A stretch of 29,291 nucleotides of DNA from NCBI GenBank assembly GCA_037139435.1, contig JBAXGK010000001.1, positions 1-29,291 of the forward strand. The letters run 5' to 3'. A program made the translations under genes and the position numbers. A model generated the notes under the pieces. The model was not told where the DNA came from. It did not search any database and saw only the letters and a list, made by a program, of their open reading frames with translations. Source of the stretch: Candidatus Omnitrophota bacterium (GTDB lineage Bacteria > Omnitrophota > Omnitrophia > Omnitrophales > Aquincolibacteriaceae). Shown one piece after another: positions 3,564-29,144 of this stretch. The number at the start of each line of letters is the position of its first letter. The first letter of the stretch is position 1.

Positions 3564-3629
3564 TCTCAGGGAATGGTCGATAATCTACCCTGGCTTTGGA
3601 TTTCTTTTTCTTGAGGGTAGCCAGGGTTG

Positions 3630-3666
3630 CCCAATTTCATCTTCGATGAAATTTAAAGGTATTGGG
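3630..3666. repeat. 42-bp-period repeat family, single B unit (CCCAAT-N25-ATTGGG)
   Basis: cccaat-ttcatcttcgatgaaatttaaaggt-attggg; internal 9-bp hairpin aatttcatc/gatgaaatt; homologous to 5670-5706 and 14203-14239. Confidence 0.85.
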
Positions 3667-3703
3667 ACTAGGGCGTCATAAAATTAACAAAAAGGGGGAC
3701 ATT

Positions 3704-4081
3704 ATGTTCAAGAAGATCATCAGCGTGTTGGTTATTGCGGTCCTGTTTACGGCCGCGAGCGGTATCGCGTATGCCGAGGAGAATAACTCGGATAAGAGCC
3801 TGACCCGTGGCGCAGCGTCCTTGGTGCTGCCGGGCTGGGGGCAGTATCTGAACAATGAAATGGACACCAAGAGCGGCAAGTTCAAGACGGGAGCCATGAT
3901 CGTGCTCGAAATCGGCGGCATCGTGACCACGATCCTGCTCGGGACCCTCGTCGGCTATCCTGTGATCTGGGTGGGTATCGGGATCCTTATATTCAACCAT
4001 ATCTGGAGCGCTTCAGATGCTTATCTGAAAGTTCCGGTGGGCCCTGAAGTAGCCATGAAGGGCGAGAAGCTCGATCGTTAA
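3704..4081 (+). CDS. Exported/membrane hypothetical protein with SLVLPGWGQY motif (DUF5683/TM2-like)
   Basis: ATG 3704 follows a GGGGG RBS; signal peptide MFKKIISVLV...AYA; two further hydrophobic segments. Confidence 0.75.
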   Translation: MFKKIISVLVIAVLFTAASGIAYAEENNSDKSLTRGAASLVLPGWGQYLNNEMDTKSGKFKTGAMIVLEIGGIVTTILLGTLVGYPVIWVGIGILIFNHIWSASDAYLKVPVGPEVAMKGEKLDR

Positions 4082-4085
4082 TGCT

Positions 4086-5117
4086 TTGAAGTCCGATCTT
4101 TCTTTTAAAAAAAGCAGGCCGTGGCAACTCGGCGGCCTGCTTTTTTTATGCTTCCTATCCTCTGGATTTTCCCTGTCTTCCTCAAAATCCGAAGGCCGCT
4201 CGTTTCCGCTCCCGGGGAATTTCGAAGAAGTCTGGAATGCCACGCTCGCGACGCTCGCGGCTGAAAAGATCCCGCTGGAAACGACTGACAAAGCCCGAGG
4301 CTATATCCGTTCCGCGACATTTCCTTTGTTTAAAAAAGAATATAAAGAGTGGGCCAAAGCCCCGAGCCTGTCCTCGAGCGGATTTTGCGCGCTTGAGATC
4401 GGTGTTGTGGAAAAAGATCCGACTCTGACGGTTGTGGGGCTCAAGGCCTACTTCAAGAGGAAAACGGGTCTTTCGACCAAGGGATTTCGAAAGACTGACG
4501 GGTCTCGTGGGAGGTTCGAAGGACTCTTGGGCAAAAGTATCCATGCACGGATTGTGGAGGCAAAGTTTCCGGCACTTAAAAGTGTGATCCTGGGTTGCGA
4601 CCTTCACTACGATGACAAGACGGCGCATTATTTCATTTCAGGAGCCGACGCGTCCACGCTTGGCTATGAGCAAGGACTCCGCAACGGCGATGTTCTCATG
4701 AAGATCTCGGGCCAGGACGTGACGCCTGCGAATCTCTTCGGTTTCTTTTTGAATGTCCCAAGCGAATCCCTCAAAAAATTCATGGTGGTTCGTAAGGAGG
4801 GAGAGCTGGAGCTCCCGATCAGTATTTTCTTTCTGAACCCCGATGCGCCGCATCTTGGGTTTCGAGTGGAACGTGATCCGGAAACTCTGCGATTCACGGT
4901 CAAAAACGTGCGCGCCGGTTCTCCGGCAGAGCGGGAAGGATTTTTGCCTGGGGACATCCTGCTCAAGCAGAATAGCATCCTGCTCGATCGCTGGGAGAAC
5001 TATTATCGTGCGATCCTGGCCCAAAAGGATGGCGAACCTCAGATCTTCCAGGTCGAGCGTCGGGGCAAACTCCTGGAAAAGAAAATTATACTTGCCGGTA
5101 AGCAAGTCCCTCTTTGA
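4086..5117 (+). CDS. Exported protein: BamC/NlpB-like N-terminal domain plus two PDZ-like domains
   Basis: TTG start uncertain; signal-like N-terminus; FEEVWNATLATL...DKARGYIRS segment; PDZ signatures GLRNGDVLMKISG and SPAEREGFLPGDILLKQN. No protease domain seen. Confidence 0.7.
   Translation: MKSDLSFKKSRPWQLGGLLFLCFLSSGFSLSSSKSEGRSFPLPGNFEEVWNATLATLAAEKIPLETTDKARGYIRSATFPLFKKEYKEWAKAPSLSSSGFCALEIGVVEKDPTLTVVGLKAYFKRKTGLSTKGFRKTDGSRGRFEGLLGKSIHARIVEAKFPALKSVILGCDLHYDDKTAHYFISGADASTLGYEQGLRNGDVLMKISGQDVTPANLFGFFLNVPSESLKKFMVVRKEGELELPISIFFLNPDAPHLGFRVERDPETLRFTVKNVRAGSPAEREGFLPGDILLKQNSILLDRWENYYRAILAQKDGEPQIFQVERRGKLLEKKIILAGKQVPL
4107..4147. terminator. Bidirectional intrinsic terminator-like hairpin
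   Basis: Perfect 15-bp inverted repeat AAAAAAAGCAGGCCG / CGGCCTGCTTTTTTT with an 11-nt loop. Confidence 0.6.
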
Positions 5118-5563
5118 AAAATCCCCATTTGGCGGGTATTTATTCCGTCCTGCTTCCCGGGTTGGGCCAACTTTATCTTGGAGAGCGCGCCAAGGGTTGG
5201 ACGCTTGTTTGTATGGATGCGGGCGTTGCGGTGAGTCTTCTCTTGAGTCATACAGCGATCGCCTGCTTTGTAATGGGAGGGATCTATTTTGCCGTGATGA
5301 TCCCCGCGGTGATGGACGCTTTTCAGACCGCTTCCGGTCGGCCCCGGACTTTTACCGCGGATACCGTTCCTTACGTGATCGTTATGTTGCTCATGGTCGG
5401 TCCGTTCGCTATTCCGCTTTTGTGGCAAAGCCGGAAATTCTCAACTTCGTGGAAGATCGTCTGGACCCTCGTTGTTATCCTGATCGCCCTTTTAGGGATC
5501 GCGATCTTGACGTTTGCGGCTTCGTCCCTGGAGCAGTTCATGAAACAGGCGGTGGCAGTTTAA
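5114..5563 (+). CDS. Membrane protein with SVLLPGLGQLY motif (DUF5683/TM2-like)
   Basis: TTG start overlaps the upstream TGA (TTGA); several hydrophobic segments; motif shared with the 3704-4081 protein. Confidence 0.75.
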   Translation: MKNPHLAGIYSVLLPGLGQLYLGERAKGWTLVCMDAGVAVSLLLSHTAIACFVMGGIYFAVMIPAVMDAFQTASGRPRTFTADTVPYVIVMLLMVGPFAIPLLWQSRKFSTSWKIVWTLVVILIALLGIAILTFAASSLEQFMKQAVAV

Positions 5564-5642
5564 TTCGCTTATTTTGTATGCGGAGCGTTTCAAAAGAACG
5601 GTCTCCCTCGCGGGGCTCCATGCTATCCTTGTCTGAAACTTT

Positions 5643-5706
5643 GTTTCGATGGATTGGTATTGGGACTGCTCCAATTTCAACTTCGTTGAAATTGAGAGGC
5701 GTTGGG
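5643..5706. repeat. 42-bp-period repeat family, partial A unit plus full B unit
   Basis: GGGAC at 5662 and 5704 (42 apart); gtttcgatggattggtattggg matches the A unit; 10-bp hairpin caatttcaac/gttgaaattg in the B unit. Confidence 0.85.
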
Positions 5707-5739
5707 ACTAAAATACCTCAAAATATATTAGGAGGCTTG

Positions 5740-5867
5740 CCCCGTTAGAGATGGGGGTAAGAATTTATTCTTGAAGAATCAGGTCTAGGACATCGGGTTT
5801 TTTCGCATTGAATTTCTATTAATTTACGGAAGCGCTTATTTAAAATCGCTTCCTATCTCTAACGGGG
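5740..5867 (+). repeat. MITE-like element with perfect 13-bp inverted ends CCCCGTTAGAGAT / ATCTCTAACGGGG
   Basis: Ends at 5740-5752 and 5855-5867; subterminal hairpin GGAAGCG/CGCTTCC; homologous to 11538-11650 in opposite orientation. Confidence 0.7.
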
Positions 5868-5872
5868 TACCT

Positions 5873-6352
5873 ATGAATTCTAAGCGGGCCGTTGCACTTT
5901 TCTTGTTATTGTTTTTGCTGCTGGGGCCGGGGTGCTATGCCGAAGATCCCCAGGCAACTCTTGGGCCATCGGCTGTTTCAACGCCGGCTGCGGGGCAGTG
6001 GTCCGAGGGCTGGTATCAGGGCGCTTCCGGGTACGAAAAAGCGATCGAAGAATACAAGCGGACCAATAAACCAATGGTCGTCTATATGACCGTCACATGG
6101 TGCCCTTATTGCCGTAAGTTTGAAAAAGAGGTGCTGTCGTCACCTCGGGTTCAAGATATGTTGAGGGACAAGATCAAGGTTACGATCAATCCGGAATCCG
6201 GAAGTCGCGAGAACGCGATCGCGTTTCAATACGGGATCCGGGGATTTCCGTCTTTTTTCCTCCACCCGCCTCAGCCTGCCAGTGCTGTGCAGCTTTACAC
6301 CGGGGTGTCCCCCGAGCAGTTCGTCGATTTCTTTAGACAAGTTCTCAAGTGA
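5873..6352 (+). CDS. Exported thioredoxin-like protein (WCPYC)
   Basis: Signal peptide; TWCPYC active site; GIRGFPSF cis-Pro loop. Confidence 0.85.
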   Translation: MNSKRAVALFLLLFLLLGPGCYAEDPQATLGPSAVSTPAAGQWSEGWYQGASGYEKAIEEYKRTNKPMVVYMTVTWCPYCRKFEKEVLSSPRVQDMLRDKIKVTINPESGSRENAIAFQYGIRGFPSFFLHPPQPASAVQLYTGVSPEQFVDFFRQVLK

Positions 6353-7122
6353 TTCCCGTAGCGCTTTCTATCGCCGGTTCTGATCCTTCGGGCGGGGCCG
6401 GTATTCAAGCCGATCTCAAGACCTTCCATCAGCACAAGGTCTATGGGATGGCGGTGATAACGCTTCTTACAGCCCAGAACACGCGGGGTGTCCGGGCCGT
6501 CTACGTCATGAAACCCGCTCAGGTGATACGTCAGCTCGAAGCCGTACTTGAGGACATCATGCCTCAGGCAGCGAAGACTGGCGCGCTGGGGGATGATAAA
6601 CTTCTCCGTGCGGTCGCGAGAGCGGCCAGGCAATTCAAGTTTCCCCTCGTGGTAGATCCGGTCATGATCAGTAAACACGGTGCGCCGCTACTCAAGCGAA
6701 ATGCTGTTCGTGTTTTTATCAAAGAGCTCTTGCCGCACGCAGCTCTGGTGACGCCGAATCTCTGTGAAGCTGAGGTCTTGAGCGGGATCAAAGTTCGCGA
6801 TCCGGCATCTATGGAAAAAGCAGCGCGGATCATCGCCGGGTTTGGCCCTCAAGCGGTGCTTGTCAAAGGCGGTCATCTGGAAGGAGAAGCCTTGGACCTT
6901 TTTTATCAGGATGGGCGCGTGCGCTTCTTCAGGGCTCCGAGGATCAAAACGAGGCATACGCATGGGACCGGCTGCACATATTCCGCCGCTATTACCGCTG
7001 AGCTTGCCAAAGGAAATAGCCTCCTTGCGGCCGTCTCGAGTGCCAAAAAGTTCATCACCCGTGCTATTCGTACCAGCCCCGGCCTCGGGCAAGGCATGGG
7101 CCCCGTGAACCATTTCGCCTAG
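6349..7122 (+). CDS. thiD: Hydroxymethylpyrimidine/phosphomethylpyrimidine kinase
   Basis: IAGSDPSGGAGIQADLKTF, VVDPVM, TPNLCEA, KGGH, HTHGTGCT, PVNHF; GTG start overlaps the upstream TGA. Confidence 0.95.
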   Translation: MIPVALSIAGSDPSGGAGIQADLKTFHQHKVYGMAVITLLTAQNTRGVRAVYVMKPAQVIRQLEAVLEDIMPQAAKTGALGDDKLLRAVARAARQFKFPLVVDPVMISKHGAPLLKRNAVRVFIKELLPHAALVTPNLCEAEVLSGIKVRDPASMEKAARIIAGFGPQAVLVKGGHLEGEALDLFYQDGRVRFFRAPRIKTRHTHGTGCTYSAAITAELAKGNSLLAAVSSAKKFITRAIRTSPGLGQGMGPVNHFA

Positions 7123-7206
7123 CATTCTTCCCAGCAAAAGATTGTTTTTTAAAATCATTCACGTTCGGATATAATTCCTTAACAAACTGATCGAAGGAGA
7201 AGAAGT

Positions 7207-7800
7207 ATGATTTGCTGTTTGGATCTGGAAGGCGTGTTGATCCCAGAAATTTGGATCAATGTGGCGAAAAAGACCGGCATTAAAGCGCTTGAGATCACCA
7301 CGCGCGATGAGCCGGACTACGATAAGCTTATGCGCTATCGGCTTGCGATCTTGAAACGTGAACGGATCAAACTTTGCGACATCCAAGCCGTGATTAAGCG
7401 CATGAACCCGCTTCCGGGGGCCAAGGCATTCCTGAAGAAACTCCAGGAACGGTACCAAGTCATCATTCTCTCCGATACTTATTACGAATTTGCCGGGCCG
7501 ATGATGAAAAAGCTTGGGAACCCCACGCTTTTCTGTAATTGTCTCTCCGAAGACAAAAAAGGTTTTATCGGGAATTACCATCTGCGGCAAAAGAACGGCA
7601 AGAAAGAGGCCGTGCGAGCGATCAAGGGGCTAGGCTTCAACGTCGTCGCCGCGGGGGATTCCTATAACGACATCGCAATGCTCAAGACCGCCGACCGCGG
7701 GATTTTGTTCCGTCCGCCCGCAAAGATCGTCCGCCAATTTCCTCGCTTTAAAGTCACCCGCACCTACGCCCAACTCCTCAAGGCCTTTAGCAAAGACTGA
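7207..7800 (+). CDS. thrH: Phosphoserine phosphatase/homoserine phosphotransferase (HAD family)
   Basis: CLDLEGVLIPEIW, TTRDEPDYDKLM, ILSDTYYEF, AGDSYNDIAML; GAAGGAG RBS. Confidence 0.93.
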   Translation: MICCLDLEGVLIPEIWINVAKKTGIKALEITTRDEPDYDKLMRYRLAILKRERIKLCDIQAVIKRMNPLPGAKAFLKKLQERYQVIILSDTYYEFAGPMMKKLGNPTLFCNCLSEDKKGFIGNYHLRQKNGKKEAVRAIKGLGFNVVAAGDSYNDIAMLKTADRGILFRPPAKIVRQFPRFKVTRTYAQLLKAFSKD

Positions 7801-8097
7801 CCTGTGGGCGCTTTTCTTGGATTTGTTTAGAGTTTTGCCATCCGACCATTGTTTTGCTCATCTTAAGAATCCGAACAAAGATTTGTTACCCGTGCGCCAT
7901 GCTTTTGGTTTATATGGCGGCGGAGAAATCCCGTATTCCATAAATCAATTAACAAGAACGGGGCTCTATACAGCCACGAATACCCCGAGTTTGTGCCGAC
8001 GGTAACCATTAAATGGGATGAATTGGCGGTCATTTAGAAAAGCCTTTTTGAGTCGATAAAGACAGTGGTATTGTTTGGTGTCTATGAGGAGGGGGAA

Positions 8098-8739
8098 ATG
8101 GATTCTGTGCTAACGAATTGCGTAACGCTTATCGTTATAGTAGGTTTCGTATTGGGAATTGTTTTTCTTGTATTTCTGCGACCTGCTCAAGAAAAAATCA
8201 AGCGTTTGGCTGTCTCGCTAGGAGCTTCTAGCGTTCCTTCTTTCTTTCGTCTCCCCGGAATCAAAGGTGACTATGAGGGGGCTGCTTTTGAAGTTGCTTT
8301 CCGTGCCACAAAATCGCCGGGGATTGTTGCTCTTCGCATTACTCTTTTTCACGCTTTTATGGCAGAAGTAGACATTTTTTCCAGCGTAAGCGGCCCCATG
8401 GACAAATTTTTAAATAAAAACCCACTTCTCAAGAAAATGATGCCGTATTTTGCTGGACTTGAGCATCCAATCTATACGGATGACACAGTTGCCGCAGAAA
8501 ACTTCCTACAATCTGAACGAATAAAAAAGACGATAGATAAGCTATTTGCGATAGGGTTTTCATTGATTTCAGTTCGTAAGAATAAAATCTTTATTAATTC
8601 GGACTATTTCCTGAAGGGACTCCATCTCAGCGCCGCAGACCGGCAAACAATTTATGCAGCTTGGTTCCGTGATGACGCTTACGATCCAGAGGATATCAGA
8701 ACGGTTTTGAAAAACTTAAGTCTCATTGCGAAGGGGTAA
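8098..8739 (+). CDS. Hypothetical protein with N-terminal transmembrane anchor (AT-richer islet)
   Basis: ATG 8098 after GAGGGGG RBS; 213-aa ORF; one strong N-terminal TM helix; no family recognised. Confidence 0.65.
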   Translation: MDSVLTNCVTLIVIVGFVLGIVFLVFLRPAQEKIKRLAVSLGASSVPSFFRLPGIKGDYEGAAFEVAFRATKSPGIVALRITLFHAFMAEVDIFSSVSGPMDKFLNKNPLLKKMMPYFAGLEHPIYTDDTVAAENFLQSERIKKTIDKLFAIGFSLISVRKNKIFINSDYFLKGLHLSAADRQTIYAAWFRDDAYDPEDIRTVLKNLSLIAKG

Positions 8740-8816
8740 CACTGCTGTCAAAGCCACAATTCCCTACGCTAGAATCACAGGACTGCACCGCTGATTTTGA
8801 AGCCCATCTAGCTAGC

Positions 8817-9032
8817 CTATCCATACCACTGCCGGTCCAAACTCCGGTATTGGATCGCCTCGGCCCCAACTTTTCCATTCTTTTCCAAAATGGTAGTTGG
8901 GACGGCCCCAATCTCCACGGCGTTTCGATTGATTGGTATTGGGACCGCGATATGCTCGCTTTGAATTTGCTCGCAGCCCGCTAAGCCCGCGATAGTGCGG
9001 CCAATTTTTGGGATCTTGTAATAGGCCTTGCG
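8817..9032 (-). pseudogene. comM: 3'-terminal fragment of comM/yifB (Mg-chelatase-like ATPase), split by an 84-bp in-frame insertion
   Basis: Translates RKAYYKIPKIGRTIAGLAGCEQIQSEHIA [28-aa insert] EAIQYRSLDRQWYG*, matching the ComM/YifB C-terminal consensus I recall (R-A-Y-x-R-I-L-K-V-A-R-T-I-A-D-L...E-H-I-A-E-A-I-Q-Y-R). Confidence 0.85.
8865..8948. repeat. 42-bp-period repeat family, two tandem units (C plus A) inserted in the comM fragment
   Basis: CCCAAC 8865, GTTGGG 8896, CCCAAT 8907, ATTGGG 8938; 5-bp linkers TCGGC/ACGGC/ACCGC; total length 84 = 2 x 42. Confidence 0.9.
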
Positions 9033-9073
9033 AAGCAGTAAAAAAGGTGACGGTCCTCTTTTAGTCAACACAC

Positions 9074-9115
9074 CTACCACGGCCCATACAAGCTTTTATG
9101 TTGAATCGCCTCCGC
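9074..9115 (-). pseudogene. Second, more degenerate comM 3' tail
   Basis: Minus strand reads AEAIQHKSLYGPW*, aligning with AEAIQYRSLDRQW of the copy at 8817-8864. Confidence 0.65.
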
Positions 9116-9167
9116 AGCTGTAGGCGTTAAGCTGGAAATTCAAAGCGGTTGCGTTATACTACGAGCC

Positions 9168-10826
9168 ATGTTGAATCAACTTCACATCAGAAATTTCGCG
9201 CTGATCGAGGACCTGACGCTTGAATTCTCCGGGCAAATGAACGTGCTTACGGGGGAAACGGGTGCTGGCAAATCCATTTTAATCGATGCGATCCGTTTCG
9301 TCTTGGGCGAGCGGCTGGACGGGCTCAGGACGGAGCCGAGCGAGAAACCCTGCCAGGTGGAAGCTGCGTTCGAGCTCCGGGAAGACTTCCTCAAGAAACA
9401 GCCTGCGCTCGAGCCTTACCTTAACGAAGATGGCCTGGTCATCCTGCGCCGGGAATTCTCCCAGGGAAAGACCCGCGCGTGGATCAATAACCGCCTCGTG
9501 CCACTCTCCATTCTGAAAGAAGCCGGCGCTTCTCTGATCGATATCCATGGACAGCATGACCACCAGCAGCTGCTGGATAGCGCCGTGCATCTTGATATTC
9601 TCGACCGTTTTGCCAAGATTGAACCTCTGAAGGAAGACTACCGTATCCTCTATGAGCAGTATGCCCGTTTAAAGAAGGAGCAGGGAGAGCTCGCGGAGCT
9701 TGAGGACCACAAGGAACGGGAGCTCGACGTTTTGAAATACCAAGTAGACGAAATTGAACGCGCGGAGATCAAGGATCTGAATGAAGAAGACCTGGAATTG
9801 GAGCGCATGCGGCTCGCGAACGCAGAGAAACTTGCCGAGATCGTAACGCATGCACTTGCGGTTCTGGATGAAAACGATACAAACGCGGACGGTTTTTTAT
9901 CCGAAGCCGTGCGCGATCTTAGAAGTCTCGTCAAATTCGATAGCTCGGTCGAAAAGATCAAAACCGATTGCGAGAACGTGCAGTACTCACTCCAGGAGGC
10001 CGTGAGCGCTCTTCGGGATTACCGGGAGAAACTCACGTTTGATCCGGACCGTCTCAAGGAGTTGGACAGTCAGGCCAATCTTCTCGACCATCTCAAACGG
10101 AAATATGGCGGGACGCATGCCAAGGTGCTCGAATTCTACCGGGAGGCCAAAGCGAAATACGACAAACTGATCGACATGGACATGACGAAGAAGGACCTGC
10201 GGAGGGAGATGGAGGGGCTGGAACCGAAGTTGCAGGAGGCCGCGCTTAAATTCTCCGAGAAACGGAAAAAGGCGGGGGGGCTCCTTGAAAAGTCGATCGA
10301 GTCTGAATTGAAGGACCTTCAGATTGCACACGCGGAGTTCGAGGTGCGGATCGAAAGGACGGGTTTTTCTGCGGAAGGGATGGACCACGTGGAATTTCTA
10401 GCGCGCATGAATCCTGGCCAGCCGATGCTTGCGATCGCGAAGATCATTTCCGGCGGCGAAGCGTCCCGCGTGATGCTCGCCATGAAAAAGGCGCTTATGC
10501 AGGTCGATCTCGTGCCCGTCCTTATCTTTGATGAGATCGATACCAATATCGGCGGACGCTTGGGCAACGTTACCGGCCAAAAACTCAAAAGCATCTCTGG
10601 CGAGCGGCAGGTGCTGCTCGTGACCCATTTGCCGCAGATCGCGTCTTTCGCGGACCGGCATCTTAAAGTGACCAAGTCCGTCGAAAAGGGCCGGACGATG
10701 GTCCGGTATCAGGTACTCGAAGGCGAGGCCCAAGTGCGGGAGCTCGCACAGATGATGAGCGGTCAGCAGGAAAGCGAGATCTCACGGCGCCACGCTGAGG
10801 AAATGCTCGACCGCGCGAATTCCTGA
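9168..10826 (+). CDS. recN: DNA repair protein RecN
   Basis: LTGETGAGKSILIDA Walker A, IHGQHDHQQL, ISGGEASRVMLAMK, LIFDEIDTNIGG, VTHLPQIA. Confidence 0.97.
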   Translation: MLNQLHIRNFALIEDLTLEFSGQMNVLTGETGAGKSILIDAIRFVLGERLDGLRTEPSEKPCQVEAAFELREDFLKKQPALEPYLNEDGLVILRREFSQGKTRAWINNRLVPLSILKEAGASLIDIHGQHDHQQLLDSAVHLDILDRFAKIEPLKEDYRILYEQYARLKKEQGELAELEDHKERELDVLKYQVDEIERAEIKDLNEEDLELERMRLANAEKLAEIVTHALAVLDENDTNADGFLSEAVRDLRSLVKFDSSVEKIKTDCENVQYSLQEAVSALRDYREKLTFDPDRLKELDSQANLLDHLKRKYGGTHAKVLEFYREAKAKYDKLIDMDMTKKDLRREMEGLEPKLQEAALKFSEKRKKAGGLLEKSIESELKDLQIAHAEFEVRIERTGFSAEGMDHVEFLARMNPGQPMLAIAKIISGGEASRVMLAMKKALMQVDLVPVLIFDEIDTNIGGRLGNVTGQKLKSISGERQVLLVTHLPQIASFADRHLKVTKSVEKGRTMVRYQVLEGEAQVRELAQMMSGQQESEISRRHAEEMLDRANS

Positions 10827-10840
10827 CGAGGATATCTTTT

Positions 10841-11138
10841 ATGGAAAAATTAACCAGCGGTCCAGGTTGGTCTCTCAGTTCCGATGAGCCGAGTCCTGCG
10901 ATCAAAAAGAAAATCCAAACACCCCCAAGCCCGTGATCCATTTGGAAAAAAGGACCTGGAAATACGTGAAGGTCGTCTCCGGGCTCCACATCTATGGCTC
11001 AGAGAGATTGAAGGGGTGGCCCGTGAATGGAAGACGCTTTGTGGGGCCGGCGGCACGGTCAAGAACGGGGCCATTGAGATCCAGGGCGATAAGGTTCCGT
11101 TGATCCGACAATGGTTTTTAAAGAGAGCCTCCCGGTGA
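10841..11138 (+). pseudogene. yciH: SUI1/YciH-like translation initiation factor with two apparent -1 frameshifts (pseudogene or assembly error)
   Basis: ATG 10841 with GAGGA RBS. Three frames in succession give MEKLTSGPGWSLSSDEPSPAIKK / ENPNTPKPVIHLEKRTWKYVKVVSGLHIYGSERLK / GVAREWKTLCGAGGTVKNGAIEIQGD. Span is 298 nt; adding 2 nt restores a 99-aa ORF. Confidence 0.7.
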
Positions 11139-11141
11139 TTT

Positions 11142-11531
11142 TTACAGATTTGCGCGGATCTTATCAGCGGCCTGGGTGAGCTCTTCAGGAGTTGCGGCTT
11201 TGGCGCGGGCGAAGCTGAGGTCGCCGACACTATTGATCGGGATAAGATGGATGTGGGCGTGCGGGACTTCAATCCCGGCGACCATGATACCGACTTTCTT
11301 GCAGGGGAAGGCCTCCCCGATCGCTTTGGCGACCTTCTTGGCGAATACCATCAGCCCTTTTAACAGCTCATCCTCCACATCAAAAATATAATCAACCTCT
11401 TGCTTGGGGATGACGAGCGTATGGCCGGGATTCACCGGACGGATATCGAGGAATGCGAGATATCGGTTGTCTTCGAGGATCTTGTGGGCGGGGATCTCTC
11501 CCGCGAGGATCTTGGTGAAAATAGTAGGCAT
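11142..11531 (-). CDS. HIT family nucleotide-binding protein
   Basis: Start MPTIFTKILAGEIP at 11531; DIRPVNPGHTLVIPK; HIT motif VPHAHIHLIP. The ORF-track extension to 11723 is judged spurious. Confidence 0.92.
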   Translation of the reverse strand: MPTIFTKILAGEIPAHKILEDNRYLAFLDIRPVNPGHTLVIPKQEVDYIFDVEDELLKGLMVFAKKVAKAIGEAFPCKKVGIMVAGIEVPHAHIHLIPINSVGDLSFARAKAATPEELTQAADKIRANL

Positions 11532-11537
11532 GGGCTC

Positions 11538-11650
11538 CCCCGTTAGAGATAGGAGGCGCTCCGAAAGCGCTCCCGTGAGTTTCTGGAATTGACTGACAGG
11601 AAACGAACTGTTGAAATCTGGGGAAATTATAGGACCAATCTCTAACGGGG
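11538..11650 (-). repeat. MITE-like element with perfect 13-bp inverted ends (second copy)
   Basis: CCCCGTTAGAGAT 11538-11550 and ATCTCTAACGGGG 11638-11650; subterminal hairpin homologous to that of 5740-5867. Confidence 0.7.
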
Positions 11651-11806
11651 TAAACCTCCTTTTTGAGAGCGATATAGTTTTTTTAATGAAATGCGGTACA
11701 ATATTCCAAGACGTGCTTCTCATGCTGCGGTTTCCATAGGTAGTATGGGCCCAAGCCCTTATTTTTTCATGAAAAGTAACTTCGATAAAAAAACAGGGGG
11801 TTTAAG

Positions 11807-12148
11807 ATGGCAGATGAAAATAAAAATACAGTGATGGGCGTGACGGAGAATCTCGAAGGGCTTCTTTGCTATGCGCTGGGCTGGGTGACGGGACTTGTTT
11901 TTCTGCTTCTCGAACAGAAGAACGCGTTCGTGCGTTTTCACGCGCTTCAGTCGCTGGTAACCTTCCTAGCGCTTTTCATCGTCTCGGTGGTGGCCGGGTT
12001 TATTCCGGTTCTTGGAGTTTTGATGGGATTGCTCCTCTGGATTTTGGGAGTGGTCCTCTGGATCGTTCTGATGGTGAAGGCTTATAAAGGGGAACGTTAC
12101 AAACTGCCTGTCATCGGTGATTTCGTCGAACAGCAGCTCGGAAAATAA
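11807..12148 (+). CDS. DUF4870-like small membrane protein
   Basis: ENLEGLLCY...FVRFHALQSL...AYKGERYKLPVIG; three TM helices. Confidence 0.85.
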   Translation: MADENKNTVMGVTENLEGLLCYALGWVTGLVFLLLEQKNAFVRFHALQSLVTFLALFIVSVVAGFIPVLGVLMGLLLWILGVVLWIVLMVKAYKGERYKLPVIGDFVEQQLGK

Positions 12149-12156
12149 CAAAGAAG

Positions 12157-12223
12157 CACAACGGTCAACGCGCAACGGTCAACGAATGGATTTTCGTTTT
12201 CACGTTGCGCGTTGTGCGTTGCG
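12157..12223. repeat. Inverted heptamer array (NNCAACG x4 / CGTTGNN x3)
   Basis: CACAACG GTCAACG CGCAACG GTCAACG (12157-12184), then CGTTGCG CGTTGTG CGTTGCG (12203-12223). Confidence 0.85.
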
Positions 12224-12259
12224 CGGGAACAATGAGTCACACTTCTTTTCTCTCCTCCC

Positions 12260-12625
12260 ATGAACGATTTTAGCTGCCAACGCTGCAGCGCCTGTTGTCG
12301 CCAGCCCGGTTTCGTCTATCTTAAGGAAGGGGAGGCCGAACGTCTTGCCGCTCGTCTTGCGATGGACCTTTACCCGTTCACAGAAACGCATTGTCTTCTC
12401 ATGGACCGGCAGCATCTTGTGCTTAAAAATCGTCCCGATGAAACGTGTCTCTTTCTTGAAGCTAATGGTTGTCAGGTCTACGATGCAAGACCCCTTCAAT
12501 GCCGTGATTTTCCCTTGCGCTGGAAAACAGAAAAAAGTTTGAGCTACTGCGAAGGGTTGAAAGGGATCGAGCGACGCGAGAATGATGCTGCGGGGAAACT
12601 ACGGCGCGACGATTTTGGCGGCTAG
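12260..12625 (+). CDS. YkgJ-like Cys-cluster (zinc/iron-chelating domain) protein
   Basis: FSCQRCSACC...CLFLEANGCQVYDARPLQCRDFP...C. Confidence 0.88.
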   Translation: MNDFSCQRCSACCRQPGFVYLKEGEAERLAARLAMDLYPFTETHCLLMDRQHLVLKNRPDETCLFLEANGCQVYDARPLQCRDFPLRWKTEKSLSYCEGLKGIERRENDAAGKLRRDDFGG

Positions 12626-13993
12626 GTTCAAGCTTGCTTTCAAATCCGCCTCTTCGGATTTCGGCGCCGGAGGGGCTGGGGGGAGCGTAAAGATGAACCG
12701 GGATCCTTTGCCTGGCTCGCTTTCGAGCCAGATCTTCCCGCCGTGCATTTCCACGAATTGTTTGCTAATGGCAAGTCCCAAGCCGGTTCCTTTATGGCTC
12801 TGCTCAGAAGTTCGCCCTGCCTGCTCGTAAGCCTGGAAAACGGCCGTCTGATCTTTTAAATCGATCCCGGGTCCCGAATCTTCCACCGTGATCCTCGCTC
12901 CGCCATCGGGCTCTTTTGTCAGGGCAATATGGACAAAGCCTTTCTGGGTGAATTTCAGAGAGTTCGAGAGGAGATTGTAGAGGATTTGACGGACCTTGAG
13001 CTCGTCCGCCGTAATCTGGAGATGGGCCGGTTTTTCCGTGAATCGAAGGGTGAGACGTTTGGTGAGGGCTTCTTCACAAAAGAGATCGATCGCTGTGTGG
13101 ATGACCTTTACAAGCTCGATCGGATGGAGCGATAGCTGGATCTTTTTGGACTCGATCTTGGACAGGTCAAGAACGTCGTTGATGAGCTCGCGAAGATGCT
13201 TCCCGCTGCGCTCCACGCGAGAAAGGAAATCCTTTTGCTTTTCGGTGAGCGGTTCGGTTGGGCTTTCGAGCAAGAGCTGGGAAAACCCAAGGATCGAGTT
13301 CAGGGGCGCGCGGATCTCATGGCTCATACGGGCAAAATAATCGGTCTGCAAGTGATGGGCATATTTGACTTTAGCGCTTGTTTCCCGGAGTTCCCAAAGT
13401 AGTTCTTCGAGACGCTCGTCCTTTTTCACAAGAGCCGAGGCCATGAATCTTATGAAGATCGCGATCAGGTAGAAGAAGGCGATGTGTCGCACGACGATAG
13501 CCGTTTGCTGGACCATGTTTAGGTCCGAGCCGAGTGAGACAGTCTGCGGGATGATATTTAAATTCCCGAGAACGATCAATCCCGCATAAAGAGCCGAGGC
13601 AAGGGTCGCCATCTGGAGGGTCAGAATGGTCGGCAGATTGAGCGCGCAGTAGACGATCGAGATGAAGAAGCAGGAGGCGTAGATGAAAAGGTCCACGTTC
13701 CCCAAAAGGTGCATAGCGGCGGTTTCTGCCAGGAAGTCGATTATGACGGAAGCGATCAAAGCATCAGTCCCTGAGCGGATATTGGTAAAAAGCCCCTTGT
13801 AGGGGTAGTTGACGAAGAGCTCGACAGCTATCACGAGGTAGAGGGGCCAAAGGTTTTGGATCGTGAAATTTCCCCACTTGCAAGTCAGGGAGTAAAGGGG
13901 AATAAGAAGTAGAATGGTGAGGATGCGGAGCTGATAAAGTTGGCAAGCTTTCTGGTAAATCTCAGCGATCGAAGTTCTTCCCGTGATTCTCAT
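12599..13993 (-). CDS. Membrane sensor histidine kinase (HisKA plus HATPase, no receiver domain)
   Basis: Multi-TM N-terminus; H box MSHEIRAPLNSILGF; N box QILYNLLSNSLKFT; G boxes DSGPGI and GTGLGLAI. Start 13993 chosen for the GAGG RBS; 14002 or 14062 are possible. Confidence 0.9.
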   Translation of the reverse strand: MRITGRTSIAEIYQKACQLYQLRILTILLLIPLYSLTCKWGNFTIQNLWPLYLVIAVELFVNYPYKGLFTNIRSGTDALIASVIIDFLAETAAMHLLGNVDLFIYASCFFISIVYCALNLPTILTLQMATLASALYAGLIVLGNLNIIPQTVSLGSDLNMVQQTAIVVRHIAFFYLIAIFIRFMASALVKKDERLEELLWELRETSAKVKYAHHLQTDYFARMSHEIRAPLNSILGFSQLLLESPTEPLTEKQKDFLSRVERSGKHLRELINDVLDLSKIESKKIQLSLHPIELVKVIHTAIDLFCEEALTKRLTLRFTEKPAHLQITADELKVRQILYNLLSNSLKFTQKGFVHIALTKEPDGGARITVEDSGPGIDLKDQTAVFQAYEQAGRTSEQSHKGTGLGLAISKQFVEMHGGKIWLESEPGKGSRFIFTLPPAPPAPKSEEADLKASLNLAAKIVAP

Positions 13994-14152
13994 GATGTGC
14001 ATCCTCAGAAATTGATGGGTCCCTTCAAGCGGGATTGCTCTTATAATAGCTAAGCGCGCCATGAAAAGGAAATCTATTCTTCGTCTGAGAAGTGAGAAGC
14101 TTGTGGCGAGGTGCTTGCTGGCTGTTATCTCTATCTTTTCTTATTGGTGACA

Positions 14153-14239
14153 GGGACAGCCCCAATCTCAGCTATGTTTCGATCGATCGGGATTGGGACG
14201 GCCCCTATTTCAACTGCATTGAAATTGATGGGTATTGGG
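14153..14239. repeat. 42-bp-period repeat family, A plus B units
   Basis: GGGA(C/T) at 14153, 14195 and 14237 (42-nt period); units cccaat...attggg 14161-14197 and ccctat...attggg 14203-14239. Confidence 0.9.
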
Positions 14240-14289
14240 ATTAAAATGAACCGTTGCTTTTAAAGCTCTCATTGCATGAAAGGAGTCCC

Positions 14290-27331: not shown

Positions 27332-29122
27332 ATGGACAGAATGAACATTGTGATCGTCGGGCACGTGGACCACGGCAAAAGCACTGTGATCGGCCGGCTT
27401 TTGGCCGATACGGGATCTTTGCCTGAGGGGAAACTTGAACAGGTCAAAGCGACTTGCGCGAAGAACGCGAAACCTTTCGAATACGCGTTTCTTCTCGATG
27501 CTCTCAAAGATGAGCAATCTCAGGGGATTACGATCGATGCCGCACGTTGCTTCTTCCACACGAAGAAGCGCGAATACATTGTGATCGATGCTCCGGGGCA
27601 TATTGAATTTTTGAAGAACATGATCACGGGTGCTTCGCGGGCCGAAGCGGCACTCCTCGTGATCGATGCGAAGGAAGGCATTCTCGAAAATTCTAAGAGA
27701 CACGGTTATCTGCTTTCCATGCTCGGGATTCGCCAGGTGGCGGTGCTTGTGAACAAGATGGATCTCGTGGAATACAGCGAGCAGGTCTTCCGGGCGATCG
27801 AAAAAGAATACGGCGATTTTTTGAAAGGGTTCAGCATCCAACCGAATGCTTTCATCCCAATGAGCGCGATGAACGGTGTGAACATGATCGCCAAGTCACC
27901 GGAAATGCCGTGGTATTCCGGGCTTTCGGTATTGGAACAGTTGGACTCTTTTCATCATGAAACCACGAGTGAAGCGTATCCCTTCCGTTTTCCGGTGCAG
28001 GACATTTACAAATTCACAGAGCTTGCCGATGACCGGCGCATCATGGCCGGAACGATCGCCACGGGAACGATCCGGGTCGGTGACGAAGTGGTGTTTCTTC
28101 CTTCGAAAAAAAGAACGCGGATCAAAACGATCGAAGAGTTCAATGCGCCGTCGAAGCAAGAAGCCTCCGCCGGGGAAGCGATCGGTTTTACGACCGAGAC
28201 CCAACTTTATATCAAGCCAGGCGAGCTGATGGTGAAAACATCGGATCCTCTGCCGTCCGTGAGCACGCGTTTTAAGGCGAATATTTTCTGGATGGGCCAT
28301 GCACCGCTTGTGAGAGGCAAAAAGTACAAATTAAAACTCGGTGCGAGCCGTCCTTCGGTTCGACTCGTCGAAGTTCTGAATGTTCTGGACAGCTCGGAGC
28401 TGACTTCGATCACCAACAAGGCACAAGTGGATCGGCATGATGTTGCGGAGTGCATTTTTGAAACGGGTAAACCGCTCGCCTTCGACAAGGCGGGCGATCT
28501 TCGTGAAACAGGCCGTTTTGTGATCGTGGATAATTATGAGATCGCAGGCGCCGGGATCGTTTTGGAGGCGCTTTCGGAGGATCGGTCGATTCTGAAGGAT
28601 CATGTGCGCCATCGCGAGCAGATCTGGGAGCGGAGCGGTGTCAGTGCTTCGGAAAGAGGCGGGATCTATGGTCACCGGCCGGCATTCATCCTGATCTCCG
28701 GCAAGGTCAATACCGGCAAGCAGAAGATCGCACGGGAGCTTGAAGCGCGTCTCCTGAAGCAAGGAGTGAAGGCTTTTTATCTCGGCATTTCAAATCTTGT
28801 TTCGGGTCTCGACAGCGAATTGCCTCAAGGAGTCGATTCGCAGGAAGAGATCGTCCGGCATCTCGGAGAACTCGGCAGGATCATTGCCGAATCCGGGCAG
28901 GTTTTTATCACGACCGCATCGGATCTGGATGATTTTGATATCGAAACCCTCCGAATCTTGAACAGTCCGAATGAGGTTTGGGTGATCCAGGTGGGGCCCA
29001 ATACTTTCTCTGGGTTTAAACCGTCTTTTGTTTTAAAGGAAAATGAATCTCTGGAAGCGGCGGTCGAGAAGATCGGCTCTTTTCTCAAGAAAAAAGAGAT
29101 CATTCTGGAATATTATCTCTAA
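27332..29122 (+). CDS. cysN: Sulfate adenylyltransferase subunit 1 (GTPase) with a degenerate C-terminal APS-kinase-like domain
   Basis: [34 protein letters not shown]; C-terminal CysC-like domain with eroded P-loop. Confidence 0.94.
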
Positions 29123-29144
29123 CGGGGCAAAGGAGATCTATCCG

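Follow-up and report, generated by a model that had tools for sequence, protein, structure and literature searches.

A stretch of 29,291 nt at the start of contig JBAXGK010000001.1 (assembly GCA_037139435.1, positions 1 to 29,291; hereafter the window) from a Candidatus Omnitrophota bacterium carries a short palindromic repeat, CCCAAY-N25-RTTGGG, at four separate places. The first-pass annotation of the window proposed that the repeat is a mobile element kept simultaneously as a DNA hairpin and as a 14-residue reading frame, comparable in behaviour to the Rickettsia palindromic elements (RPEs). The question raised by the locus is what kind of element these units belong to, and whether structure, peptide or both have been maintained. 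Comparison among related genomes indicates that the units are very probably hairpin modules of a non-autonomous mobile DNA element that resembles miniature transposable elements with inverted repeats (MITEs) and repetitive extragenic palindromic (REP) sequences, and that is specific to one freshwater Omnitrophota genus-level group and a few sister genera. The element is of the MITE/REP-like kind, with RPE-like behaviour in a minority of its copies, and is not a dual-coding repeat.

The host is represented by a metagenome-assembled genome (MAG) from a freshwater lake, 2.44 Mb in 455 contigs and 93 % complete, which is designated G000; the genus set comprises 20 genomes, namely the host and 19 others, to which the remaining G-numbers refer. 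The sequence runs that contain window sequence are freshwater and lake metagenomes, and relatives of the encoded RecN at 83–85 % identity belong to MAGs named Candidatus Omnitrophota.

Repeat units in the window

A search for CCCAAY-N25-RTTGGG with at most one mismatch returned six matches in the window, at 3630, 5670, 8865, 8907, 14161 and 14203, against 0.30 expected, and none of 100 shuffled sequences reached six. The six units at four loci, two of them with a one-base mismatch in the left arm, were thereby reproduced, and the 42-bp spacing at 8865/8907 and 14161/14203, the GGGAC-N-GYCCC junctions and the three core types (A, B and C) are as first described. All six units lie on the + strand, but their common orientation, which had been noted at first, is due to chance, since genome-wide the two orientations occur at about 50:50. 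Each of the four loci is bridged, with zero differences, by contigs from other studies' lake metagenomes, and the units are therefore not assembly artefacts.

The initial inventory required correction in two respects. What had been listed as a partial unit at 5643 forms the 3' half of a hybrid first module beginning at 5626, and two modules had been missed, a complete type C module at locus 1 (3588–3626) and a degenerate one at locus 4 (14128–14156). The four loci, read on the + strand, are composed as follows.

Locus 1 (3585–3670, + strand), composite element: CTA 3585–3587; type C module 3588–3626; linker TTG 3627–3629; type A module 3630–3667; CTA 3668–3670.
Locus 2 (5623–5710, + strand): CTA 5623–5625; hybrid module 5626–5665; linker CTG 5666–5668; type A module 5669–5707; CTA 5708–5710.
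Locus 3 (8861–8947, + strand): CGG 8861–8863; type C module 8864–8902; linker CGG 8903–8905; type B module 8906–8944; CCG 8945–8947.
Locus 4 (14125–14243, + strand), three-module array: TTA 14125–14127; degenerate short type C module 14128–14156; linker CAG; type B module 14160–14198; linker CGG; type A module 14202–14240; TTA 14241–14243.

The type C module of locus 1 has a stem of CCCTGGCT/AGCCAGGG and a T-rich loop, and the hybrid module of locus 2 combines a type C 5' arm with a type B 3' half. All four loci are intergenic, with locus 1 in the gap between an electron transfer flavoprotein (ETF) gene and the next gene and locus 4 in the divergent gap between a histidine kinase gene and a T2SSE ATPase gene; the sole open frame in the window that contains the repeat is a gene remnant at locus 3, which is described below.

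Modular architecture of the element

The basic module, a hairpin of 39 nt, has the form YCC-stem-loop-stem-GGR, and a 3-nt linker comes after it; the 42-nt period arises as the sum of the two. The period had been described as strict, but it is only the genome-wide mode: 26 of the 41 parsed modules are 39 nt long, with a range of 35–40. The usual element is approximately 84 bp long and consists of a type C module, a linker and a type A or B module; among all the G000 copies inspected together with their flanks, a type C hairpin stands in front of almost all type A and B units. The type C hairpin has an 8-bp stem, starts with YCC and ends with GGR, and has between its arms a T-rich loop of about 22 nt, the last bases of which are ATGGT, while its stem sequence varies widely (for example CCTTGTC/GACAAGG, CCTGACT/AGTCAGG, CCAAGCT/AGCTTGG, CCCAACT/AGTTGGG and CCTGGCT/AGCCAGG). 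Tandem arrays of the 84-bp composite also exist, as do three-module arrays such as that of window locus 4.

Two other 3' hairpin types, with the arms TCCCATTRACC...GAGAATGGG and CMTGATTACC...GAGAATCAKG, are joined to type C modules at the following places, which makes the family a modular superfamily of elements with two hairpins.

Type C modules with other 3' hairpins: G000 contigs C112, C144, C173, C184, C79, C80:4249 and C93; also C102, C106:5062, C118, C176 and C185:2847.

Each module is an inverted repeat by itself. Its boundaries read ...GC/CCCAAT and ATTGGG/AC..., or YCC and GGR, with a constant GC.../...AC. A search for generic hairpin modules was too noisy for use (927 matches against 561 in shuffled sequence).

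Integron attC sites are defined by RYYYAAC ... GTTRRRY core sites and form co-oriented cassette arrays beside intI. An assignment to this class was rejected on sequence grounds, with no search made for intI, as most of the units read CCCAAT...ATTGGG, occur in both orientations and are scattered among housekeeping genes on many contigs. The readings as a clustered regularly interspaced short palindromic repeat (CRISPR) array and as terminators were dropped on sequence grounds.

Abundance and phylogenetic range

Confinement of the repeat to the window, which would have told against a dispersed family, is contradicted by the host genome, where 59 exact type A/B loci and about 104 nhmmer matches at E <= 0.01 were found, as well as 92 matches to the type C module. 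Exact copies number 11–126 in 18 of the 19 other genus genomes, with 0–2 in the reversed-pattern control; the richest genome is G015 (126 copies), and the small genome G013 is the only one of the genus without any. Of 300 further genomes sampled from the phylum, those of the genera g30, g31 and g28 alone exceeded chance, with 4–12 copies; the three are sister genera belonging to the same family, and the copies in them genuinely represent types A, B and C. A pattern search of IMG/VR viral contigs found no copy, and no described repeat family was found in the literature on Omnitrophota. The repeat adds a lineage-specific, highly structured selfish element to this candidate phylum, and it explains some of the fragmentation of these MAGs.

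Filled and empty sites

That the repeat is dispersed and mobile, as initially suggested, is borne out both genome-wide and genus-wide by orthologous sites that are filled in some genomes and empty in others. The site orthologous to locus 1 is filled in four genomes, G000 included, and empty in eight, where GATAA-CTA-GGGG stands in place of GATAAT-CTA-element-CTA-GGG. Locus 2 is filled only in G000 and absent from G016, G009, G004, G018 and G012, which read ...ATGC/GTGT-TA-GAAT/AAAT. Three genomes have no element in the gap of locus 4 and read CTG-TTA-AAAT there; two others have a two-module C+A element between CTA triplets, and G000 has the C+B+A array between TTA triplets. A duplication of 3 nt of the target is seen at window loci 1, 2 and 4, in the valyl-tRNA synthetase (ValRS) gene (87 = 84 + 3) and in addA, and is imperfect in addB and comM. 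Identical 5' and 3' flanking triplets were counted in 15 of the 41 parsed elements, where 4.4 would be expected, and in four of five direct comparisons of filled and empty sites the flanks match each other and the empty site, and not the linker in the middle of the element. Copies have thus been inserted at different sites in different species, and insertion duplicates 3 nt of the target, which is the signature of a staggered double-strand cut.

At the locus 4 orthologue of G016 (L048, G016:C1), a nested insertion lies inside the 3' arm of a resident type C module; the nested element is of a different two-hairpin type, with ACTGATT...AATCAGT plus TCCCAACC...GGTTGGGAC.

Maintenance of the hairpins

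The first-pass annotation had also proposed that compensatory change maintains the hairpins, and pair covariation in the type A and type C stems supports this. In type A, the pair formed by positions 7 and 21 is occupied by TA (56 units) or CG (20), that of positions 10 and 18 by AT (43) or CG (19), and that of positions 11 and 17 by AT (36) or GC (29), while type B retains a fixed 2x2 mismatch. In type C, each of the stem positions 4–8 shows two to four Watson–Crick pair types, and 22 distinct stems occur among 33 modules, a diversity that is informative even though the modules counted were chosen for pairing and the percentage paired is not. Orthologous copies also differ by compensatory pairs, with CATC/GATG against CAAC/GTTG at locus 1 and differing stems at the AddA site. 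The stems therefore keep pairing through compensatory changes. Loci 1 and 2 both fold as two hairpins, whichever strand is taken, with z scores of -4.0 (+ strand) and -5.1 (- strand) at locus 1 and of about -4 at locus 2; loci 3 and 4 fold less clearly.

Such conservation of pairing, the significant folds at loci 1 and 2 and the compensatory differences between orthologous copies might also be expected of a functional structured RNA or a cis-regulatory element (an mRNA stabilizer, a terminator, a small RNA or a protein-binding site) under selection locus by locus, and a contig from an RNA library does include the type A module of locus 1. However, no strand or context is favoured: in tandem gene pairs 20 copies have the same orientation as the flanking genes and 20 the opposite one, the types of intergenic gap occupied (tandem, convergent, divergent) match the background, and intragenic copies stand in either orientation. 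Mispairs of the G-T kind are not in excess over A-C mispairs (13 against 17), and hence mark no transcribed strand, and there is neither a U run nor a G+C-rich stem. Presence at the same site varies between close species, and Rfam gave no match at the gathering score and none of relevance at E <= 1. A function of this kind is accordingly very unlikely. Orientation also shows no link with local GC skew, and the overall pattern fits a constraint at the DNA level that is tied to mobility, not a transcript with a fixed function.

Copies inside genes and the peptide frame

Insertions are strongly depleted from genes, with 55 % of the units lying outside crude open reading frames as compared with 8 % of random positions, and only about 6–14 of 89 arrays lie inside genes; a few copies have persisted in frame where intact proteins have variable linkers. 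In G000 the single-copy ValRS gene carries an 87-bp insert (84 bp plus a repeated CAG) between the N-terminal KWY...GYF and the PPPNVTG motifs; the insert is absent from the 16 other orthologues aligned, and the G000 frame continues through all domains for 990 aa. In AddA, four of five genomes have an 81-nt in-frame insert between the helicase and nuclease domains, flanked by CGG/CGG, and in AddB an 81-nt insert is found in two of six. A sensor histidine kinase (G000 contig C27) contains a single 36-nt type B module, in G000 only. The RPE analogy drawn at first thus holds for a minority of copies, which lie in frame inside the intact ValRS, AddA, AddB and histidine kinase, but does not extend to a conserved peptide. 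The sizes of the intragenic inserts (36, 81, 84 and 87 nt) are all multiples of three because survivorship requires it.

Within the ValRS insert region, a fraction of 0.82–0.88 of sampled words is present in runs of other studies, which is only a hint. The linker from KWY...GYF to PPPNVTG is hypervariable in length across the genus (L069-L087, codons about 28–75; aligned 5' region 521–674 nt), and short direct repeats (CAGTCTG, CAAGTC) abound in it, which makes it a permissive site. Where the G000 kinase has its type B module, G016 (L096, G016:C6) has an unrelated G+C-rich palindromic in-frame insert of 87 nt; the kinase loop is either a hot spot or unusually permissive for hairpin insertions.

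On the minus strand, locus 3 forms an 84-nt in-frame insert in the remnant of a comM gene, which reads ...HIA, then 28 residues of the element, then EAIQYR....

comM/yifB-type 3'-end remnant (8817–9080, - strand): 87 codons, with a weak Mg_chelatase_C match.

Only 88 bases separate the remnant from recN, and the remnant is thus a fragment, not a functional gene. In another frame at 9074–9115 (minus strand), upstream of recN, stands a second, short tail of comM-like sequence (AEAIQHKSLYGPW*), and the two tails suggest a duplication or rearrangement at the same junction.

The peptides read from the minus strand of the window units, of the form VPIPxNxNxxEIGA, could be reproduced, save that the unit at 3630 reads VPIPLNFIEDEIGQ. 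Their existence led to the proposal of a dual constraint, in which the repeat would also encode a conserved 14-residue module that is added to proteins. A period of 42 nt and insert lengths divisible by three would suit such a module, and VPIPINRN-like peptides are indeed read in kinases on G000 contigs C27 and C83 and in the comM remnant. Elsewhere the element gives unrelated peptides from other frames or the other strand, namely PNT.Q-like in ValRS and AddB and SQYQS-like in DinB, while AddA uses the forward strand; at least four different frames are used among the intragenic copies, with both strands represented, and no peptide is therefore conserved. Most copies are intergenic, and for four of the six window units the VPIPxNxNxxEIGA frame closes 3–20 codons upstream. 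The column entropy of 0.80, 0.72 and 0.61 bits at codon positions 3, 2 and 1 reveals no codon periodicity, the changes in the stems are non-synonymous, and stop codons are not depleted, with 2.16 open frames of six in the elements against 1.96 in random intergenic windows. The consensus unit is open in four of its six frames, and an open frame therefore carries no information. Coding constraint on the 14-residue frame, as initially claimed, is for these reasons highly improbable, more so than any other explanation considered here. The peptide appears to be a by-product, because the period is divisible by three and the frames happen to be open. Annotators are cautioned that open frames of the element should not be called peptides.

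Transposition mechanism and candidate enzymes

The observations support insertion as a preformed unit of about 84 bp with a 3-nt target duplication; for a MITE/REP-like element, an enzyme acting in trans would recognize the terminal hairpins and make the 3-nt staggered cut. Quasi-palindromes are corrected by template switching. The hairpins would be kept because mobility needs them, and such correction possibly helps.

Several observations weigh against this explanation. The two ends of the element have only TCC.../...GGA in common, some 3–4 nt, unlike those of a classical MITE. The 5' flank is identical with the mid linker in 17 of the 41 elements, and shuffling of the 3' flanks inside each linker class raises to 11.4 the number of identical 5' and 3' flanks that is expected (p = 0.026); the apparent duplication may thus in part be subfamily-specific. 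Among independent lake assemblies no contig that skips an element was seen, and current activity is thus not demonstrated. A co-distributed transposase, for which a search had been recommended, adjoins no copy at the Y1, DDE_Tnp_1 and rve loci examined. Proteins of the Y1 family (PF01797) occur in 16 of the 20 genus genomes, with no match in G000, G015 or G019, and the six best Y1 loci found in the genus have no unit at a distance of 1.5 kb or less. No module is found in the examined flanks of 22 Y1, DDE_Tnp_1 or rve loci, the latter two families having been searched in five copy-rich genomes, where DDE_Tnp_4 gave no match, and the copy-rich G015 has none of these four transposase families. 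All the genomes compared are MAGs, which lose repeats and insertion sequences, and because of the latter loss the absence of a transposase is weak evidence.

The identity of linker and flank admits two explanations: target triplets may in part be specific to subfamilies, or else arrays may grow as one insertion after another occurs at a single triplet. It also keeps alive, as a minority view, a guide-like mechanism of the HUH type, in which a REP-associated tyrosine transposase (RAYT) or an IS200/IS605-type enzyme, that is, an HUH (Y1) transposase, would act on single-strand hairpins and cleave at the triplet at the hairpin foot. Insertion would then occur beside a matching target triplet, and the apparent duplication would consist of the target together with the element's own cleavage site. 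The modules are imperfect palindromes of REP size that stand in clusters, and the occurrence of the same triplet three times in an element (CTG/CTG/CTG in five cases, CAG/CAG/CAG in two) recalls the recognition of a cleavage site by a guide sequence; the wide occurrence of PF01797 in the genus is also in keeping with it. However, the family is missing from G015 with its 126 copies and from the host itself, and the best Y1 loci have no module nearby. The module ends bear no GTAG or CGTC tag, the orientation of copies is unrelated to gene strand or GC skew, where insertion at a single-stranded fork predicts a bias, and the flanks match each other and not the mid linker in most of the direct comparisons. 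A Y1 mechanism is therefore considered unlikely.

A further possibility, somewhat less likely still, is that each 39-nt hairpin is the minimal mobile unit, whose insertion would take place either at a genomic triplet that matches or where a hairpin already present has its foot triplet. An enzyme would in that case read the hairpin together with the triplet, and the hairpins would be actively maintained in place, even inside essential genes. If true, this would explain the 39+3 period, the differing number of modules at orthologous sites, the exchange of one 3' module for another and the fact that 5' flank, linker and 3' flank are so often identical. To our knowledge, modular self-targeting hairpin mobility has not been described. 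Once closed genomes become available, the modular architecture and the behaviour of the triplets would offer a tractable entry to the discovery of a new hairpin-recognizing mobilization enzyme.

Other features of the window

The gene content of the window is of an ordinary housekeeping nature and includes genes for ETF, a PDZ protein, a thioredoxin-like protein, RecN, the histidine kinase and the T2SSE ATPase, among others. A lake metatranscriptome contig of 483 nt matches window positions 3615–4096 exactly; it begins inside the locus 1 element and runs through the downstream 125-codon gene, although RNA-library contigs cover only parts of the window and cannot show transcript starts or strands. 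A TTGACG-N17-TAATTA promoter-like site near locus 1 is kept in the empty orthologues, and the arrangement fits a location of the element in the 5' leader of the 125-codon gene, downstream of that site.

A dispersed motif, (C)CTATCTCTAACGGGGTA, is found at 5852–5869, 11635–11652 and 29112–29129, just upstream of start codons. One copy ends 4 nt ahead of the ATG at 5873, and relatives retain the motif in their orthologous gaps. It resembles a shared 5'-leader or translation-initiation signal.

Comparison with known palindromic elements

The Omnitrophota element shares with the bacterial MITEs, such as Correia/NEMIS of Neisseria, QMITE1/2 of Coxiella and Nezha of cyanobacteria, its small size, the lack of coding capacity, tens to hundreds of mostly intergenic copies, a short target duplication and variation in presence between relatives. 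In-frame intragenic copies occasionally occur in bacterial palindromic and MITE elements, as they do here (PMC10969869, PMC5896051). In contrast to MITEs, the Omnitrophota element has no long shared terminal inverted repeats, no parent insertion sequence was found for it, and it is built of self-complementary 39-nt modules that are strung together by 3-nt linkers and can be exchanged at the 3' position.

A second likeness is to the REP sequences and bacterial interspersed mosaic elements (BIMEs) of Proteobacteria, which together with RAYT genes form REPtrons: both consist of imperfect palindromes of 35–40 nt that occur in clusters, have compensatory stems and are restricted to lineages. A GTAG or CGTC tag is the hallmark of the two REP superfamilies (PMC3733652), whereas no such tag stands outside the stem of the Omnitrophota module. 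Moreover, its units follow each other in direct and not in alternating orientation, a 3-nt duplication accompanies them, and they flank no RAYT gene. The palindrome-associated elements derived from IS200/IS605 (PATEs) have end hairpins and motifs at the hairpin foot that match the flank, as seen here, but they insert without duplication and with strand bias, neither of which is observed for the Omnitrophota element, and no TnpA is linked to its copies.

The RPEs are the parallel drawn by the first reading, and the comparison is one of behaviour: in both cases palindromic selfish DNA is carried in frame inside housekeeping genes, apparently in permissive linkers. The Omnitrophota element differs in being read in several frames with no conserved peptide, in its length of about 84 bp as compared with about 100–150 bp, and in its host, which belongs to a free-living or epibiotic freshwater candidate phylum. 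It provides, outside Rickettsia, a second clear example of essential genes (ValRS, AddAB) that tolerate palindromic DNA in frame.

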